Shown here: positions 4,430-25,639 of the stretch, in pieces
Layout of the letters: the number at the start of each line of letters is the position of its first letter
Numbering within the stretch: the stretch's first letter is position 1
Source of the DNA: a virus
Reading direction: 5' to 3' (one strand)
Virus record (IMG/VR): IMGVR_UViG_3300045988_144994
DNA: 55,971 nt
Made by a program: the position numbers and the translations under genes
Notes under the pieces: generated by a model
The model's database searches: none
The model's input: the letters and a program-made list of their open reading frames with translations, nothing else
Told to the model about the DNA's origin: nothing

Positions 4430-4502
4430 GCCTACTTAGCTCAGTTGGTAGAGCATCGGTTTTGTACTCCGAAGGTCATCCGTTCGAACCGGATAGTAGG
4501 CT
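4430..4502 (+). tRNA. tRNA-Thr (anticodon UGU)
   Basis: 73 nt. Acceptor gcctact/agtaggc (7/7 pairs), D arm gctc-agttggta-gagc, anticodon arm tcggt-tttgtac-tccga (one U.U pair), V loop aggtc, T arm atccg-ttcgaac-cggat. Confidence 0.85.
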
Positions 4503-4606
4503 CAAAAAGTAATTGATTAATAATAAATTGAAGAAAAATGTTGCGGAATTTAGAAAATATTTGGTCGGAAAGCTTGGTTAATTCAGAGGAATTTGCCATG
4601 TTTGCA

Positions 4607-4793
4607 GTGCCAAATCATATTACCGTTGGTTCTTTGTGTAGTAAAGAATCATTAATTCCGTATAACAGCGGGGTTTCTCTGACATATACAGTTTTACAAC
4701 GGTATAGTGATTTGGCGATCAGGAGAGGCTCCGCTTCTTCTTTTGTAAAGAAAATATTATTAATCAAATTTTTAGTTGTCAAATGCCAAATCA
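4607..4793 (+). promoter_or_regulatory. Leader element E0: start-mimic / anti-start / start triad
   Basis: gccaaatca (4609-4617) pairs with tgatttggc (4708-4716), and accgttg (4622-4628) pairs with caacggt (4697-4703). The sequence tgccaaatca recurs at the start codon (ATG 4783, copy 4784-4793). Confidence 0.5.
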
Positions 4794-5073
4794 CGCTAAA
4801 AAATTTGAAGCAGAAACCACAGGTGTATCTACTTCACAGCCTAAAAAGACAGTATCTAAACTGGAAAAAGAAATCATCTCTATCCAGAAGAAAGTATCCA
4901 AGCTACAAGAGGAATGCAGACACGAACGAAATGAAAAGTATCGCCTGCTGTGCTACATTAACAGGTATTGTTCAGCACTGTTCCCTTACTTCGACAGAAG
5001 TAACCCGGTTGATTCCAAAAACTGGGAAAAGGTACACCGCCTCCAGCTGGATCTGGATAAGGAAATAAAGTAA
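4783..5073 (+). CDS. Small coiled-coil protein
   Basis: 96-aa ORF. It is preferred over the overlapping 4538..5068 ORF, whose product looks non-protein-like. It resembles the 13705 ORF in layout (MP.. N-terminus, coiled coil, Cys/Tyr-rich tail). Confidence 0.6.
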   Translation: MPNHAKKFEAETTGVSTSQPKKTVSKLEKEIISIQKKVSKLQEECRHERNEKYRLLCYINRYCSALFPYFDRSNPVDSKNWEKVHRLQLDLDKEIK

Positions 5074-5164
5074 GGCCGTCCCAGTCGCCAAACTAACGGC
5101 CTTACAAAAAACTCTAAGCTCTTTGACATGTTGACAGACAATAAAAAACACGCAGTTTGTCGCT

Positions 5165-13251: not shown

Positions 13252-13464
13252 ATGAGCAATAATTTATTCACACCAGAAGACAGCGAGCGGATAGAATTAC
13301 TCTGTCAGCTTAATCGCTTAGAGGCTCCCGTAGAAAAGTTACGGGAGCTTGTTGTTTATACAGAAAAATATAACCGCAAAAAGGAAAGGGAGGAGGGAAA
13401 GAAACAACATCCTGAACGGTTTCCCCGGGGTTCCATTCCCCGGCAGGGACAAATCTTACATTAA
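13252..13464 (+). CDS. Hypothetical small protein
   Basis: 70-aa ORF. Confidence 0.45.
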   Translation: MSNNLFTPEDSERIELLCQLNRLEAPVEKLRELVVYTEKYNRKKEREEGKKQHPERFPRGSIPRQGQILH

Positions 13465-13507
13465 ATTTTGCAATTATGGATAATAGCCGTATATTTGTGG
13501 TGTTCAA

Positions 13508-13717
13508 CTGCCAAGACGAACAACATAAATTACGTTAGAAGGGTGTTTTTATGCCCTATTATTTCTTGAATTTTCAAGTAAAATATAGGCCGTCGAAATT
13601 CCTTCGTTGCATAGCCCTTCATCGTAAGTGTTATGTTCGTCTTGGCAGATAACGGGAAAGTCGGCGGCTTTCTTATTTTTATTAACTTATAATTCATCAA
13701 CGTAATGCCAAGACGAA
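13508..13717 (+). promoter_or_regulatory. Leader element E1: start-mimic / anti-start / start triad
   Basis: ctgccaagacgaaca (13508-13522) pairs with tgttcgtcttggcag (13634-13648). Inner helices are ttacg/cgtaa and gaaggg/cccttc. A small hairpin gaaag-tcggcgg-ctttc plus a T-rich run lies at 13656-13683. tgccaagacgaa recurs at ATG 13705 (copy 13706-13717). Confidence 0.5.
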
Positions 13718-13998
13718 GTGAATCTGTAAGTAATGTGAATCATAGTACCATTACAGCACGTCCACCCCGACGAAACGAGGGTAAATTACTTTCCGAAGTA
13801 AAAGAGTTGCAACAACAACTAATCCAAGTAAGACAAAAATTAGAGATCGAAAAGAACTGCAAGAATCAGGCGTATTACTTTATTCTCAGTTCCGGCAACT
13901 TCAGAAAGTTTGCTGAGTTCCACAAAACGCATAAGGCAAGCCTTGATTATCACGGAGCTTGCATGGCGCAGCTTTATCTTGATTCGTTTGAAAAATAA
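13705..13998 (+). CDS. Small coiled-coil protein
   Basis: 97-aa ORF. Its layout is similar to the 4783 ORF. Confidence 0.6.
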   Translation: MPRRSESVSNVNHSTITARPPRRNEGKLLSEVKELQQQLIQVRQKLEIEKNCKNQAYYFILSSGNFRKFAEFHKTHKASLDYHGACMAQLYLDSFEK

Positions 13999-14013: not shown

Positions 14014-14727
14014 ATGGAAGAATTGATTATTACTTCTAACGATGGTAGAATGTCATCGTTAGAAATTGCACAGATTACCGAAAGAGAACACAAAGATGTC
14101 ATGCGTTCAATTCGAAACATGGAAGAATCTTGGTTAAAAATAGCCGGGCGCAATTTTGCGCTGGGCACGTATAAAGATGCTAATAAGCAAGATAGACCAT
14201 GCTATTATCTGACAAAAACCGAATGTTTATATGTCGCAACAAAATTCAATGACGAAGCAAGGGCTAAATTGGTTTTACGTTGGGAACAATTAGAAATAGA
14301 AAAGCGAACAGAACAAAGCAATCTTTCCCCGGCTGAAATGCTTCTCAAACAATGTCAGATCATGGTAGAACATGAAAAGAGATTGTCAACCGTTGAGCAG
14401 AAAGTTAATGAGGTATTAGCTATTCGGGAAGAAGCGCAGAAAGACATGTTATCACTCCCTCTTTCTACTGATGCTGTTCCTGAATTAAGCATGAGAGATA
14501 AAGTCCTTGCTTTGGTAAACAAATATTCCATGCACTTCAATGTTCCTCAAAAGAATGTGTGGGACCATATTTACCAAACCCTTTATTACAATTATCATAT
14601 TGCACTGCGTTCCTACGCCAGAAAGAAAAATGAGAGTCTTATTGATGTAGCTGAACGTGTAGGCGCATTGGATAAAATGTACGCAATTATTTCAAACCTA
14701 TCAAGGCAAAACGGATTAGTAGCATAA
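14014..14727 (+). CDS. Rha-family phage regulatory protein
   Basis: The N-terminus ITSNDGRMSSLEIAQITEREHKDVMRSIRNM is typical of the Rha family. Confidence 0.7.
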   Translation: MEELIITSNDGRMSSLEIAQITEREHKDVMRSIRNMEESWLKIAGRNFALGTYKDANKQDRPCYYLTKTECLYVATKFNDEARAKLVLRWEQLEIEKRTEQSNLSPAEMLLKQCQIMVEHEKRLSTVEQKVNEVLAIREEAQKDMLSLPLSTDAVPELSMRDKVLALVNKYSMHFNVPQKNVWDHIYQTLYYNYHIALRSYARKKNESLIDVAERVGALDKMYAIISNLSRQNGLVA

Positions 14728-20362: not shown

Positions 20363-20505
20363 ACAAAGATCTAACAAACAAAATCCTGCCTTATTGCGGG
20401 CATGGTCTGAAAGTGATATATGAAGATTATTTGTGTTGAATCGTTAAAAAATAATCCCTATGCAGAATGATTTTGATTTGTCGGAAAAATGCCGTATGTT
20501 TGTAG

Positions 20506-20704
20506 TGTCTATCATACTAAGAGGGCGGTAAGTCCGCCAAAACTGCGGGCATTTTTTATGCCTTAAATCGATATACGGTTTCATTACCCCCGTGTGGAGT
20601 GTTAATGCACCCACAGCCCTCTTAGGTGATAGACAGCGGGAAAGGATGGAACCGTTTTTTATTTCTATCCAAACATATCAAATTCTTAGGGATAATGTCT
20701 ATCA
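20506..20704 (+). promoter_or_regulatory. Leader element E2: start-mimic / anti-start / start triad
   Basis: tgtctatca (20506-20514) pairs with tgatagaca (20627-20635), and taagaggg (20518-20525) pairs with ccctctta (20617-20624). A T6 run lies at 20655-20660. tgtctatca recurs at ATG 20695 (copy 20696-20704). Confidence 0.5.
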
Positions 20705-20988
20705 CGGAAAAGAATTTGCTAACATCGGTACAAGGTATTGATGAAGCACGTTATGCCCACGAAACGGCTAAAACTACTGTAACTATTCCTTCAATCAACG
20801 TCGAAGAACTATTGGAAATCTCTTCAACACTAAGAGGCGACGAAGCAATTATCGAGGTGTCCAACCTTGTCGAATTTAATCATGATGAACCGGATCTTGA
20901 ATACGCTTTGAGGTGTGTTTGCCGGTTCTATGCGAAAGTTTCGTATCTTGTTGACAGAATGAAGCAGATATTAACCGAAGAAAAATAA
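20695..20988 (+). CDS. Hypothetical protein
   Basis: Start set at the internal ATG (MSITEKNLL). The upstream part of track ORF 20626..20988 lies in the structured leader. Confidence 0.55.
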   Translation: MSITEKNLLTSVQGIDEARYAHETAKTTVTIPSINVEELLEISSTLRGDEAIIEVSNLVEFNHDEPDLEYALRCVCRFYAKVSYLVDRMKQILTEEK

Positions 20989-20994
20989 CCTATT

Positions 20995-21708
20995 ATGAAC
21001 GAAATAATTAAAATTACTGAATCGAACGGCAAACAAGCTGTTTCGGCAAGAGAATTATATAAATTTCTTGAAGCTACCGAACGCTTTAATAATTGGTTTG
21101 AACGTCAATTACAATATGGATTTGTAGAAAACATTGACTATGTAGGGTGTAAACAATTTAACACCCTTGCAAATCAGGAACTTAATGATTACGCTTTAAC
21201 TATTAATTGCGCTAAAGAAATTTCAATGCTCCAGCGCAACGAGAAAGGCAAACAAGCACGTCAATATTTTATAGAAGCAGAAAACAAATACAGACAGTTG
21301 CAACAGACCGGAGGTTTTCAAATTCCGAAGTCTTACTCTGAAGCTCTAAAATTAGCAGCCAGCCAAGCGGAACAAATCGAACAACAGCAAAAACAAATCC
21401 AACAGCAAGCTCCGAAAGTCCTTTTTGCTGACAGTGTTTCCGCTTCTCATACCTCCATCCTTATCGGAGACCTTGCAAAGATTTTAAAACAAAATGGAGT
21501 TGAGATCGGTGCCAAAAGGCTATTTGTGTGGATGCGGAGGAATGGTTATCTGATAAAGAAACCTGGTATGAGCTATAATATGCCATCGCAAAGAGGAATG
21601 AATCTTAATTTGTTTGAAATTAAAGAAACGGTAGTGACACATTCTGACGGACACACTTCAATAAACAAAACCGTTAAAGTTACCGGAAGGGGCAAATCTA
21701 TTTTGTAA
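20995..21708 (+). CDS. Phage antirepressor (AntA-like N-terminus plus KilAC-like C-terminus)
   Basis: The N-terminus GKQAVSARELYKFLEATERFNNWFERQLQYGF is AntA/AntB-like. The C-terminus ILIGDLAKILKQNGVEIGAKRLFVWMR is KilAC-like. Confidence 0.7.
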   Translation: MNEIIKITESNGKQAVSARELYKFLEATERFNNWFERQLQYGFVENIDYVGCKQFNTLANQELNDYALTINCAKEISMLQRNEKGKQARQYFIEAENKYRQLQQTGGFQIPKSYSEALKLAASQAEQIEQQQKQIQQQAPKVLFADSVSASHTSILIGDLAKILKQNGVEIGAKRLFVWMRRNGYLIKKPGMSYNMPSQRGMNLNLFEIKETVVTHSDGHTSINKTVKVTGRGKSIL

Positions 21709-23055: not shown

Positions 23056-24261
23056 CTACCCATGAGCTAAAGACTCATGGGCTTCGGGTTTCGCAGAGGA
23101 ACGGCCTTTCAAAAGATTGGCTCTTACTTCCTCTCCACCCGTGTAATCGACAGTTCCTGCCGATATATGGTTTAATCCGAAACGAAGAATATTGATAGCA
23201 GCATTAACATCACGATTATGATGAGTATGACAAATAGGACACTCCCACTCACGGACAGACAAATCTTTAGTCTGTTTGTTGACATACCCACAGACATTAC
23301 AAGTCTGCGAGGAGGGGAAGTATCGGTCTATTTTTACAACCTTTTTGCCGTTCCATTCTGCCTTATAGGTAAGCATGGAAACGAAGCTGCCCCAGCTTGC
23401 ATCGGTAATAGACTTGGCAAGGTGATGGTTTCTCTCCATTCCCTTTACATTCAAATCCTCGATGCAGATGGTATCATATCTTCTAACAAGGGAAATGGAG
23501 CACTTGTGCAGATAGTCTGTACGGCTATTGGAAATCTTATCGTGAAGTCTGGCAACTTTGAGCCTTTGGTTTTCAAACCCTCTGCTGCCTTTCTTCTTAC
23601 GGGAAAGATGTCGCTGTGCTTTAGCAAGTTTGCGCTCGTATTTTCTTGTGTATCGGTTATTCTTAAAAGTTTCTCCCTCAGAAGTGATAAGCAAGTCCTT
23701 CAAACCCATATCCACACCAACCGACTTGTTAGTCTTTTCAAGCGGAGTTGCGTATTCTTCTTCTGTAAATACAGAAACGAAATACTTTCCGCTTGGTGTC
23801 TTGGAAATAGTTACCTTACCGATTTCACCTTTTATCTCACGGTGTACACGGCACTTGATGCCCTCCTTGAACTTGGGTATGAAAAGCCTGTCACCTGCGA
23901 CAGATGCAAATTGTGGAACGGTAAAACTATTCTTAGAGTGCTTAGATTTGAAGTTAGGAAACTTCGCCCGCTTCTGAAAGAAATTGGTATAGGCTACTTC
24001 AAGACTGCGGATAGCGAACTGCAAGGTTTGAGAATTTACTTCTTTAAGCCATGCGGTTGCTTCCTGCTTCTTCAATGCGGTAAGCGATTTAGCCTGTGCA
24101 TAGTAATTATCGCTCTTACCAGTGAGCCTATATTGTTCCTTACGCTGATTGAGAAAGTAGTTGTACACAAACCGAGCGCAACCGAAATGTCTTGCCAGCA
24201 AATCGGCTTGCACCTTAGTCGGGTACAGTCTGAACTTGTATGTTCGATTAATCTTTCTCAT
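23056..24261 (-). CDS. tnpB: TnpB (RuvC-like RNA-guided nuclease, OrfB family)
   Basis: Start set at the internal ATG (MRKINRTYKFRLYPT), the typical N-terminus. D...E...D RuvC segments are present, with zinc finger CNVCGY...CPICHTHHNRDVNAAINI. Confidence 0.9.
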   Translation of the reverse strand: MRKINRTYKFRLYPTKVQADLLARHFGCARFVYNYFLNQRKEQYRLTGKSDNYYAQAKSLTALKKQEATAWLKEVNSQTLQFAIRSLEVAYTNFFQKRAKFPNFKSKHSKNSFTVPQFASVAGDRLFIPKFKEGIKCRVHREIKGEIGKVTISKTPSGKYFVSVFTEEEYATPLEKTNKSVGVDMGLKDLLITSEGETFKNNRYTRKYERKLAKAQRHLSRKKKGSRGFENQRLKVARLHDKISNSRTDYLHKCSISLVRRYDTICIEDLNVKGMERNHHLAKSITDASWGSFVSMLTYKAEWNGKKVVKIDRYFPSSQTCNVCGYVNKQTKDLSVREWECPICHTHHNRDVNAAINILRFGLNHISAGTVDYTGGEEVRANLLKGRSSAKPEAHESLAHG

Positions 24262-24321
24262 TTCGCTTACAAAGATAGCAATTATTTCGTAAACAGCCAA
24301 AAGTTTATGTATATTTGTGGC

Positions 24322-24726
24322 ATGAAAGAAAATTATAATCACGAGAATAGACACAAGTATTACCTAAAGTGCCATCTTATCTTCTGTATCAAATACAGGA
24401 GAAAGATACTCAAAGGTGAGTTTGATGACAACATTAAAGCCATATTTCAGTCAATAGCTGACAATTCAGACTTCGATATAGACATCATGGAAACCGACAA
24501 AGACCACATACACTTTCTTATCAGCTATCCGCCAAAACTATCCGTAACATCAATAGTAAGGAAGCTAAAGCAGGAGAGTACAGTCTTTTCGTGGCGCTTA
24601 TATGGCAGTATGTTGAGAAAATACTTTTGGAAAGAGAAAACCTTATGGTCAGACGGATATTTCGTCTGCTCAATAGGCGAGGCTAATCCAAATACAGTTA
24701 TAGAATATATTAGAAACCAGGGATAG
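24322..24726 (+). CDS. tnpA: IS200-type Y1 (HUH) transposase TnpA
   Basis: 134 aa, the last part of track ORF 23218..24726. HUH motif HIHFLISY and C-terminal SDGYFVCSIG...YIRNQ. Confidence 0.9.
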   Translation: MKENYNHENRHKYYLKCHLIFCIKYRRKILKGEFDDNIKAIFQSIADNSDFDIDIMETDKDHIHFLISYPPKLSVTSIVRKLKQESTVFSWRLYGSMLRKYFWKEKTLWSDGYFVCSIGEANPNTVIEYIRNQG

Positions 24727-25048
24727 TGCCTTACATCCAACAGGCTAAAGACCTGTGGGTTTTACGGCACTCAATATAAAAAATCCTCCGTCTATTAGAA
24801 CAGCTATTTTGACTGGTACACTAAAATTAGATTCTGGCTTATTGTTTGATTTCATATCATTATAAAAAACAAAGGCTCTTGGGTCGGCATGCTCATTATT
24901 AAACCAAAATTGGTAGAACATACGAAGCCAAGAGCATAATTATGCCACAAATATAGATTCTGGAAATATGATTTACAAACAAAAAATCCAGAAAATCATT
25001 TTATAATGGCATTTTTAACATATACGGATCAACATTGCATAAAGTTAC

Positions 25049-25075
25049 AAAAAAGAGGGAACACACTCCCCTCTC
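25049..25075 (-). terminator. Intrinsic terminator closing the minus-strand cargo/late transcription unit
   Basis: On the minus strand, agaggg/ccctct stem (25054-25059/25069-25074) followed by U6 (plus-strand A-run 25049-25054). Confidence 0.5.
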
Positions 25076-25198
25076 ACACCTTCCGATATGTTCACGACGT
25101 ATATTTTCAGCTTTTACAAGCATCTTAATTCATGTAAGGCCATTTCACATAGAAATGTTATGCAAGCTGTGTCGGCAATATCAAGCAATATTTCAAAT

Positions 25199-25639
25199 TT
25201 ATCGGACATAGTATTTTATTTCATAGTTGCGAATAAATCCCTTGCATAATAAATAAACTACAACTGGGAACATCATTTCAGCAATATCTCCGTTTATATA
25301 ACAAACTTCCTCCCCTTGTAGATTAAATCCGCTACTTACTGCGATATGAACTGACAGGTGGTGTAATTCATGTGTGATTAGGTTAAAATATTTTGCTGGA
25401 CTAATAGAAATAGCAAATATGATCACCGATTCCCGGTAAAAATAGTTACTAAATGTAAGTCCATTGTTTACATTATCGCTTGTTATATTTATATATGCTT
25501 TTTTTAAATCTTCTTCATTACAATTTATCTGGTACAAGGCATCTATTATTTCTTCAACATGATACCTTGTGACCGGATAAAAGGCGGTTATGTTCCATTT
25601 CTGGCCCTTAACATAGATATGGAACCGTTGTTTTATCAT
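25199..25639 (-). CDS. Small HExxH protein (putative zinc metalloprotease)
   Basis: Contains the motif ITHELHHLSVH. Start set at MIKQRF, which overlaps the upstream stop as ATGA. Confidence 0.55.
   Translation of the reverse strand: MIKQRFHIYVKGQKWNITAFYPVTRYHVEEIIDALYQINCNEEDLKKAYINITSDNVNNGLTFSNYFYRESVIIFAISISPAKYFNLITHELHHLSVHIAVSSGFNLQGEEVCYINGDIAEMMFPVVVYLLCKGFIRNYEIKYYVR

Follow-up and report, generated by a model that had tools for sequence, protein, structure and literature searches.

In this study, we analysed a 55,971-nt stretch of viral DNA, IMG/VR record IMGVR_UViG_3300045988_144994 (the whole of which is referred to as the window), and found that three leaders in it, designated E0, E1, and E2, are homologous and constitute one RNA family. 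Each leader precedes a small open reading frame (ORF) and contains an upstream copy that mimics the start of this ORF (segment 1), a segment complementary to it (segment 2, the anti-start), and the true start itself (segment 3). Segments 1 and 2 close a long rod through stem P1 (conformer X), and an interior segment (i) can instead pair with a purine-rich segment located 3' of segment 2 (p), a fold that is predicted to expose segment 2 (conformer Y). We somewhat favour the view that the leader is a same-strand antisense RNA directed at the first small ORF and provided with a masking conformer, which would make it a functional analogue of the c4-icd-ant system of phage P1 and the seqA-CI-seqC system of phage P4. 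The components of the leaders and the genes that follow them are listed below, with the evidence in parentheses.

4597-4604 (+): E0, putative -7 promoter box cATGTTTG, one mismatch to TAnnTTTG (read from the sequence)
4608-4618 (+): E0, segment 1, start mimic TGCCAAATCAT, 5' strand of the closing stem P1 (folding, covariation)
4667-4682 (+): E0, segment i, interior strand pairing with p in conformer Y (duplex energy)
4707-4717 (+): E0, segment 2, anti-start GTGATTTGGCG, complementary to segments 1 and 3 (pairing, covariation)
4718-4746 (+): E0, linker, purine-rich p, and U-rich tract (folding, covariance model R1)
4783-4794 (+): E0, segment 3, true ATG and first 9-11 nt of the coding sequence (sequence, covariation)
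4783-5073 (+): E0, small ORF of 96 amino acids (aa), first gene of a RecT-like/helicase operon (ORF)
13490-13497 (+): E1, putative -7 promoter box TATATTTG (motif)
13509-13520 (+): E1, segment 1, mimic TGCCAAGACGAA; stem P1 extends to ~19 bp (folding)
13589-13602 (+): E1, segment i GCCGTCGAAATTCC (i:p duplex of -24.7 kcal/mol, 0 of 500 shuffles as good)
13636-13647 (+): E1, segment 2, anti-start TTCGTCTTGGCA (pairing)
13654-13683 (+): E1, segment p, local hairpin (13654-13674), and U tract (folding, terminator scan, covariance model)
13705-13998 (+): E1, start with segment 3 (13706-13717) and 97-aa small ORF of the 'IEKNxKNQAYxFIL' family
14014-14727 (+): Rha-type antirepressor-like gene (PF09669, 3e-19; PHROG anti-repressor families)
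20495-20502 (+): E2, putative -7 promoter box TATGTTTG (motif)
20506-20515 (+): E2, segment 1, mimic TGTCTATCAT (folding, covariation)
20574-20593 (+): E2, segment i TACGGTTTCATTACCCCCGT (RNAalifold, duplex energy)
20626-20635 (+): E2, segment 2, anti-start GTGATAGACA (pairing)
20637-20670 (+): E2, p (20637-20656), U tract, and alternative local hairpin (20644-20670) (folding)
20695-20988 (+): E2, start with segment 3 (20696-20705) and 97-aa small ORF
20995-21708 (+): Ant antirepressor with AntA and KilAC domains (PF08346, 3e-23; PF03374, 1e-31; phrog_63, 1.5e-70)

The triad of segments is real and not a chance pattern. In E0, GCCAAATCA is found at 4609 and 4785, with the ATG at 4783 and the reverse complement at 4708, and an inner pair is formed by ACCGTTG at 4622 and CAACGGT at 4697. 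The corresponding word of E1 (TGCCAAGACGAA) lies at 13509 and 13706 with its reverse complement at 13636, and that of E2 (TGTCTATCA) at 20506 and 20696 with its reverse complement at 20627. Segments 1 and 2 are 99, 127, and 121 nt apart in E0, E1, and E2, respectively, and the end of segment 2 is followed by the ATG after 66, 57, and 59 nt; both the positions and the spacings agree with those given in an earlier reading of this sequence (the original prediction), and no further copies of the three triad words are present in the 56-kb window. When direct-inverted-direct triads of 9-mers within 300 nt were counted across the window, seven k-mer matches at four loci were obtained, compared with a mean of 0.27 and a maximum of 3 in 200 dinucleotide-preserving shuffles. 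Triads of at least 9 nt are thus ~25 times commoner in the window than in shuffled sequence, the outcome of a control that the original prediction had itself proposed, and those of E0, E1, and E2 are the longest and the sole ones on a start codon. The other triads in the window (25035/25158/25242, 29438/29493/29721, and 45460/45590/45746) did not pass an ATG-anchored scan, and inspection of 24980-25300 revealed no ATG at 25242.

Related loci (182) were retrieved via neighbouring proteins and the small-ORF family, and a scan of IMG/VR identified 152 matching stretches. Among 80 loci with a gene of the small-ORF family, approximately 76 have the leader, ~65 of them found by a strict scan; the remainder of the 76 comprises a GTG-start group, two loci in which the mimic is imperfect, and one in which it is inverted, and the four loci outside the 76 are one deletion variant and three without a leader. 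Approximately 20 triad sequences were identified among the relatives, each altered in all three segments. They include E1-type (TGCCAAGACGAA versus TGGCAAAGCGA), E2-type (TGTCTATCA, TGCTTATCA, GACTATCA, and GTGCTTAAT, the last with a GTG start), and E0-type triads (GCCAAATCA, GCCAAACA, GCCAAAA, GCCAAGA, and GACCAAGGAA), and the main family contains many more. The distance from segment 1 to segment 2 is 116-127 nt in the small-ORF family loci and 98-101 nt in the E0-type leaders, including that of the window, and the distance from segment 2 to segment 3 is 60-77 nt across the relatives.

The covariation of the triad was measured on a block alignment (A6) of 23 distinct variants, which was built by a complementarity search, so that the percentages of pairing are inflated and the diversity of pair types is not. 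In this alignment, segments 1 and 2 are 95.7% paired, with double changes at 10 of the 11 pairs and a covariation score of 0.816 (0.19 when shuffled), and segments 2 and 3 are 98.4% paired, with double changes at 9 of the 11 pairs and a score of 0.808 (again 0.19 when shuffled). Sliding the partner by one column reduces the pairing to 34-52%. In every variant, segment 2 forms 9-14 contiguous pairs with the start; these involve the U-G of the start codon and the 9-10 nt that follow it, and the A of the start codon is never paired to segment 2. All members possess segment 1, which precedes the antisense segment on the same strand. G.U pairs are frequent in these pairings, which places the constraint on the plus-strand RNA. 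In addition, segment 2 is often Watson-Crick paired to the true start where it forms only a wobble with the mimic (at position +10, U.G in six mimics versus C-G in the starts); therefore, the pairing with the start has been selected in its own right. The pairing logic of three segments, which the original prediction had deduced from compensatory changes between the loci of the window and which homologues without covariation would have contradicted, is thus borne out by 23 distinct relatives in which the segments change together.

At L118:1300-1330 (IMGVR_UViG_3300045988_177419), the 12-nt mimic loop is inverted relative to that of L108 (AATTGGCAAAGC to GCTTTGCCAATT) between 6-bp inverted repeats (GTGCTC/GAGCAC). 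The resulting RNA would carry two anti-starts and no mimic, representing a natural 'mask-less' allele, and the inversion is suggestive of either template switching at a quasi-palindrome or an assembly artefact. In the deletion variant (L132:1440-1510), a hairpin of the leader with a U-rich loop is joined straight to the interior of the small ORF, and segment i, segment 2, the terminator-like site, and the start codon are removed. No leader was detected by the triad scan or the covariance model in the loci with distant Ant homologues (L077-L100).

Folding of the three leader RNAs confirmed that segments 1 and 2 close a long imperfect hairpin, as had been predicted. The rod is 19-32 bp long at all three loci (z = -5.25, -5.06, and -4.04 for E0, E1, and E2, respectively; 0 of 200 shuffles as good), and a hairpin and a U-rich tract follow 3' of it in each RNA. 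The small hairpin described in the original prediction does form, but it is only one of two alternative partners of p. The proposed single alternative between mimic and start was likewise incomplete, because a second covarying helix, i:p, which competes with the mimic stem, had been overlooked. This helix was proposed by RNAalifold on the E2 subgroup (five closer sequences) and was not recovered from a MAFFT alignment of 22 sequences because of one-column register shifts. It is present in all of the 13 variants analysed, with energies of -20.7 to -26.2 kcal/mol that were equalled by 0-7 of 500 shuffles, and double changes are found at 13 of its 13 pairs. Its sequences are unrelated between variants (GCCGUCGA/UCGGCGGC, GCUACUC/GAGUAGC, GGUUUCAU/AUGGAACC, and GCGGGGUUUCUCU/AGGAGAGGCUCCGC). 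In E0, the i:p duplex has an energy of -24.2 kcal/mol (0 of 500 shuffles as good) and appears in the minimum free energy (MFE) structure after removal of segment 1.

The whole Y fold, consisting of i:p and a hairpin of segment 2, is 74.9% paired in a sequence-only MAFFT alignment, versus 64% when shuffled (0 of 500 as good), and 84.1% paired in a covariance-model alignment of 26 distinct sequences. When segment 1 was removed, i:p became the MFE structure in 11 of 11 variants, leaving segment 2 largely unpaired in a loop. In most members, segment 2 forms a small hairpin in Y, the stem of which consists of its variable part and a 4-nt linker that is a copy of target positions 7-10, and the loop of which (UUGGCG or UUGGUC) is complementary to (U/C)GCCAA. 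The mimic of the main family is also located in the loop of a 5' hairpin (e.g. GUGUUC-ACGCCAA-GAACA). In E0, the 5' part of segment 2 is complementary also to the 4-nt linker ATCA (4718-4721). For p of E0, the alternatives are a local hairpin (4721-4741) and the helix with i, each of which runs up to the U tract and gives a terminator-like 3' end. The local hairpin of E2 (GGATGGAA/TTTCTATCC, 20644-20670) covaries in relatives.

Segment i lies inside the domain closed by P1, whereas p lies outside it, 3-10 nt past a rod of at least 19 bp. From this arrangement we infer that X and Y cannot coexist, and a pseudoknot with P1 and i:p formed simultaneously was rejected on the same geometry, a linker of 3-10 nt against a rod of at least 19 bp. 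Stem P1 and a free start are present in the MFE structure of the full-length RNA in all 22 variants. With segment 1 barred from pairing, segments 2 and 3 form 10-11 of 11 pairs in 17 of the 22 variants, and i:p forms in the other five. The thermodynamics are therefore in line with the earlier proposal that the anti-start pairs with either the mimic or the true start.

The homology of the three leaders is evident from a covariance model (R1) of the core from i to the U tract, built without any E0-type sequence. This model detected E1 and E2 at 57 bits and E0 as the third-best match in the window (4661-4744, 21.2 bits, E = 0.0054), with nothing else significant. It also detected the relatives E0_A and E0_B at 31-35 bits, neither of which is in the seed, and gave 68 matches in the small-ORF family loci. 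In addition, the leaders have common motifs, namely a hairpin with the loop AUUUUUUAU (not in E0 of the window), the purine-rich p, CUUUCUU, and UCAAAUU upstream of the ATG. A covariance-model search, of the kind that the original prediction had recommended, thus recovered E0 from the other leaders, and its statement that the three share a layout but not a sequence did not stand. In Rfam, the whole window matched only tRNA-Thr at the gathering threshold, and the three leaders gave scattered chance matches at E<=10, none of them to C4 (RF01695), IsrK, or SeqA.

Perfect TAnnTTTG boxes are located 3-13 nt before segment 1 in E1, E2, and >25 relatives, and every relative examined has a box; by itself, the motif shows no enrichment across the window, with 75 occurrences versus 64.5 expected. 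The position of the -7 box directly upstream of segment 1 suggests that the leader transcript would start at or beside this segment. A terminator-like site (13322-13350) precedes the promoter box of E1. A terminator scan flagged the E1 hairpin at 13654-13674, with E0 and E2 below the scan criteria, and in 13 of 13 variants the i:p stem is directly followed by a U-rich tail. In nearly all members, the stretch that separates the start codon from the U tract contains a conserved motif, (C)UCAAAUU(U/C) (4764-4772 and 20671-20679 in the window; ~5-25 nt ahead of the ATG in relatives), and the interior hairpin with the loop AUUUUUUAU is kept in most members. A translation enhancer, an RNase site, and a protein-binding site are possibilities for these two elements. 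Right after the stop of the E0 small ORF (5070-5106), there is a 10-bp hairpin (GTAAGGCCGT...ACGGCCTTAC) with GCCAAAC in its loop, and the relative E0_C has CGCCAAT at this site. With its resemblance to the core of the mimic and the start, this loop, located just ahead of the RecT-like gene, may offer the anti-start loop another target.

The original prediction also placed a near-cognate triplet at the mimic, which holds within the window (GTG, CTG, and GTG) but not as a family feature: the triplets of the relatives are GTG, CTG, TTG, ACG, TCG, CAG, CCG, GCG, and, once, ATG. Leaderless or near-cognate initiation at the mimic was rejected as a family feature because these triplets are so varied (CAG, TCG, CCG, and GCG among them), the distance from mimic to ATG takes any value modulo 3, and stops occur mostly within 5-26 codons of the mimic. 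At L138:1311-1337, the triplet is a real ATG that opens an 8-codon upstream ORF (MPRTKHTY); a decoy can therefore contain a start codon. Small ORFs on the minus strand across the leaders (4615-4794 and 13530-13700) were also discarded, as these stop-free stretches are not conserved across variants. On the plus strand, a 176-codon ORF (4538-5068) runs from the ATG at 4538 across the entire E0 leader and the whole 96-aa gene, out of frame with the latter. One frame is stop-free over the full leader in 7 of 23 leaders (~1 expected from shuffles). In E0_A, E0_B, and a locus in a metagenome-assembled genome (MAG) of an uncultured Tannerella, this frame is in phase with the real ATG, which is not general among the leaders.

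The 97-aa ORF of E1 is followed after 15 nt by the Rha-type regulator and that of E2 after 6 nt by the AntA/KilAC antirepressor. In the sampled relatives, the next gene encodes a KilA-N, Bro-N plus KilAC, or Rha protein (Rha in the Tannerella MAG), and its distance from the small ORF often falls between -14 and +17 nt. In two loci (L152:1750-2295 and L164:1668-2228), HNH/NUMOD homing-endonuclease genes lie directly after the small ORF, the usual place of the antirepressor. No family match was found for the 96-aa product of the E0 ORF, and its similarity to the E1 product, which the original prediction had noted, proved to be weak only (hhalign probability of 9.9%). The small-protein family (IEKNxKN.AY.FIL) is also found inside operons without a leader RNA (L172, L173, and L174); the small protein is therefore independent of the RNA.

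In phages whose flanks share 96-100% identity, even at synonymous sites, the leader and the initial codons share only 58-80%, which indicates that the leader moves as a cassette. A chimeric small ORF (L076:1581-1859), which combines an E2-type N-terminus (MTITKKNLSTS...) with a C-terminal body of the IEKN family, indicates that the exchangeable cassette reaches ~25 codons into the gene. At least nine genomes contain 2-4 leaders, and the specificities of co-resident leaders are always different. This is the pattern expected from negative frequency-dependent selection on a trans-acting specificity, although it is not proof of it. Together with the ~20 specificities, the cassette-like divergence, and a fold that exposes the anti-start, these orthogonal leaders would lend indirect support to allele-specific action in trans.

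In the antisense interpretation that we favour, a structured RNA of ~150-180 nt would extend from a Bacteroidetes-type promoter to a leaky site resembling an intrinsic terminator. This end would lie ~45-60 nt ahead of the gene that opens an early or antirepressor operon, and the anti-start within the RNA is complementary to that gene from the U-G of its start codon through the following 9-10 nt. In conformer X, the decoy segment 1 would lock segment 2 in the rod, so that the start on a read-through transcript is free and the small ORF is translated; an antirepressor gene close behind it would probably be co-translated, presumably through translational coupling. In conformer Y, a stem of 12-16 bp between i and p ending at the U tract would leave segment 2 exposed. 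The exposed segment could pair with the start in cis (on the read-through transcript) or in trans (on other transcripts) and block initiation, and it may also pair with the mimic of another molecule and push that molecule out of X. Conversion from X to Y might be brought about by 5' processing or by pairing in trans. Specificity would be set by the variable 4-6 nt beside the semi-conserved CCAA core, thereby separating co-resident or competing phages.

Several points weigh against this interpretation, in addition to the inflated pairing percentages of alignment A6. Any fold in which segment 1 is unpaired is 5-21 kcal/mol less stable than conformer X, which should also win co-transcriptionally; therefore, unmasking to Y needs a trigger. 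In most members, X and Y both end in a helix directly before the U tract, so that termination may be constitutive rather than switched, and control of termination by the switch is therefore not claimed. The hairpin of segment 2, which is 77% paired overall, is lacking in the E2/Tannerella subgroup. E0 heads a RecT-like/helicase (replication) operon with no antirepressor next to it, and the leaders have no sequence or structure homology to c4, CI, or IsrK. We infer the promoter, the 5' end, the termination efficiency, and any processed species from motifs and folding. Finally, hypervariability between identical flanks could result from cassette recombination without any trans-specificity.

Among the alternatives, a translational switch or timer acting only in cis, along the lines of the original prediction, in which loss of the 5' end by RNase E/Y/J or an exonuclease lets the anti-start close the start without any trans RNA, is unlikely but deserves serious consideration. 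Constrained folds behave in this manner in 17 of the 22 variants, segment 1 lies at the predicted extreme 5' end, and all pairings covary. However, such a device leaves unexplained the covarying i:p helix and segment 2 hairpin, the presentation of the anti-start on a terminator-like stem, the cassette-like hypervariability between identical flanks, and the constant difference of co-resident leaders. It is improbable that the leader is riboswitch-like or protein-binding, with a factor that binds the interior domain, shifts the balance of X and Y, and sets termination and/or translation. Two exclusive covarying conformers are typical of expression platforms, and interior hairpins, including the AUUUUUUAU loop and AUAUC/GAUAU, are conserved, but the interior as a whole is poorly conserved between subfamilies and E0 of the window lacks the hairpin with the U-rich loop. 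Neither a riboswitch match in Rfam nor a conserved core was found, nothing points to a specific ligand, and the hypervariable part is the antisense/target triad and not a binding pocket.

More doubtful still is an RNase III processing or mRNA-stability element similar to the lambda N leader, lambda sib, or T7 sites, in which cleavage of the rod sets the stability or translatability of the transcript. The rods of 19-32 bp reach a helix length of at least 20 bp, and the leaders are promoter-proximal in early operons. However, a staggered cut in stem P1 would part i from p and cut into or beside segment 2, which is hard to square with selection for i:p and for the pairing of segments 2 and 3, and gives no reason for segment 2 to match the start-codon region; RNase III cleavage as such is compatible with the antisense interpretation. 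A feature at the DNA level (a target-site duplication, a small inserted element, or a recombination site) or chance repeats can hardly be entertained. Direct repeats do flank a segment of ~175 nt, and the segment 1 loop of L118 is inverted between 6-bp inverted repeats. However, the shuffles exclude chance, and the repeats coincide in every case with a promoter box and a start codon. The inverted copy is located internally rather than at an end, and the many G.U pairs would correspond to A.C mismatches on the opposite strand or at the DNA level. A target-site duplication or a miniature inverted-repeat transposable element was rejected on the basis of these G.U pairs and the geometry. Neither the cis timer, the ligand- or protein-dependent leader, nor the RNase III element covers all of the covarying helices together with the cassette behaviour.

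A few enterobacterial phages (P1/P7, P4, N15, P22, and Gifsy-1) are the textbook cases of antirepressors and early operons controlled by antisense RNA. Bacteroidales hosts lack Hfq, and initiation based on Shine-Dalgarno sequences is rare in them; to our knowledge, almost nothing is known about lysis-lysogeny control in their temperate gut phages. In these phages, a widespread, undescribed RNA family, unrelated to the enterobacterial ones, appears to fulfil this role, and a search of the literature in a limited library yielded no description of such an RNA in Bacteroides phages. With a built-in mask, four covarying partners of one 11-nt segment, and up to four orthogonal copies per genome, the leader would be a compact programmable RNA switch. 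If its action in trans is real, the variable bases would predict the heteroimmunity groups of gut phages straight from sequence, and they could provide orthogonal regulators for Bacteroides engineering. The original prediction likened the leaders to the lambda N leader and the T7 RNase III sites, which are not the closest counterparts, because the gene order and the copy/antisense/copy layout match those of P1, P4, and Gifsy-1. By analogy, c4-icd-ant of P1/P7, seqA-CI-seqC of P4, and isrK-orf45-anrP of Gifsy-1 appear to be the closest known systems, the likeness being functional and architectural.

As in the immI region of P1/P7, the putative antisense RNA is encoded on the strand of its target, immediately ahead of it within one transcription unit. 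The target is the initiation region of a small first ORF followed by an antirepressor gene. In the 1990 work of Citron and Schuster, the c4 gene is reported to be flanked by upstream (a1b1) and downstream (a2b2) copies of its target. A few covarying bases of c4 define the specificity between these related heteroimmune phages (PMC12197685). The leaders described here differ in coming from another host phylum, one without initiation based on Shine-Dalgarno sequences, and their anti-start spans the start codon together with the early codons. They also differ in that the upstream copy masks the antisense segment in a long, stable stem, and in that a second covarying helix defines the unmasked conformer. 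No match to RF01695 was obtained at E<=10, nor any other homology in sequence or structure. In P4, the small RNA CI derives from the leader itself, with seqA and seqC flanking it (PMC4825925). The P4 leader also carries an upstream target copy, an antisense RNA, and a downstream copy on one transcript and, like E0, heads an early/replication operon. In contrast, CI acts mainly via premature termination of transcription, whereas the present leaders would target the start-codon region, both of their conformers already end at a terminator-like site, and no homology is apparent.

IsrK of Gifsy-1 is a promoter-proximal small RNA with a leaky terminator, read-through of which yields the translationally coupled orf45 and anrP; the small RNA segment and the ORF adopt alternative structures, and the short RNA acts in trans on the long RNA (PMC4825925). 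A putative small RNA with a leaky terminator-like end before a small ORF and an antirepressor-like gene would be the feature in common, along with the alternative structures and, if real, the action in trans. However, the read-through mRNA of isrK is off by default and activated by the short RNA, whereas the predicted default here is a free start; IsrK also pairs with the 3' part of orf45 and not with a start codon, and there is no homology. In translational ON riboswitch platforms such as the add adenine riboswitch, the 3' strand of P1 pairs with its 5' partner in one state, in which the start is accessible, and with the initiation region in the other, in which the start is blocked. The 3' strand of the closing stem P1 has the same choice of two partners here, but the interior is variable, nothing points to a ligand pocket, and the P1 sequence is the hypervariable, specificity-like part. 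The lambda N and T7 elements resemble the leaders in being long imperfect hairpins near a start codon in phage early leaders; they differ in lacking a three-way start-codon repeat and an antisense-type presentation, and RNase III cleavage would part the segments that covary here.

It is conceivable, but improbable, that the leaders form a self-propagating switch independent of proteins, in which the anti-start of a Y RNA pairs with the mimic of a nascent transcript and forces the new RNA into Y. Such pairing would precede the synthesis of the nascent RNA's own anti-start and prevent stem P1, and the new RNA would be terminated, occluded at its start, and itself unmasked. If this were true, the repressed state would be copied from RNA to RNA and could pass to daughter cells as an allele-specific epigenetic immunity, with naive cells defaulting to the masked, expressing state. 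Self-propagation would explain the retention of both the decoy and the true start as targets, the diversification of specificity, and the position of the mimic in a 5' hairpin loop complementary to the anti-start loop.

The window represents a temperate siphovirus-like genome that encodes an integrase, a RecT-like protein, a helicase, DnaB, TerL, a portal protein, and a head morphogenesis protein. A megablast search of 10 kb against the INPHARED phages gave no match, and no close relative is present among the deposited phages; the TerL protein shows only ~40% identity in tblastn, to TerL of Bacteroides phages. Searching the GTDB genomes with the Rha protein identified two distant matches, one of which is the related locus in the Tannerella MAG. 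A tRNA-Thr(TGT) gene (4430-4503) lies ~95 nt upstream of the E0 promoter box, and the 3' end of a tRNA is likewise located upstream of the E0-type leader in L010/L011. At its C-terminus, a 502-aa ORF (23218-24726, +) has a match to transposase families of phages (phrog_2577, 3e-41); a 432-aa ORF of the opposite strand (23056-24354, -) overlaps it, and this may be an insertion element inside the phage.

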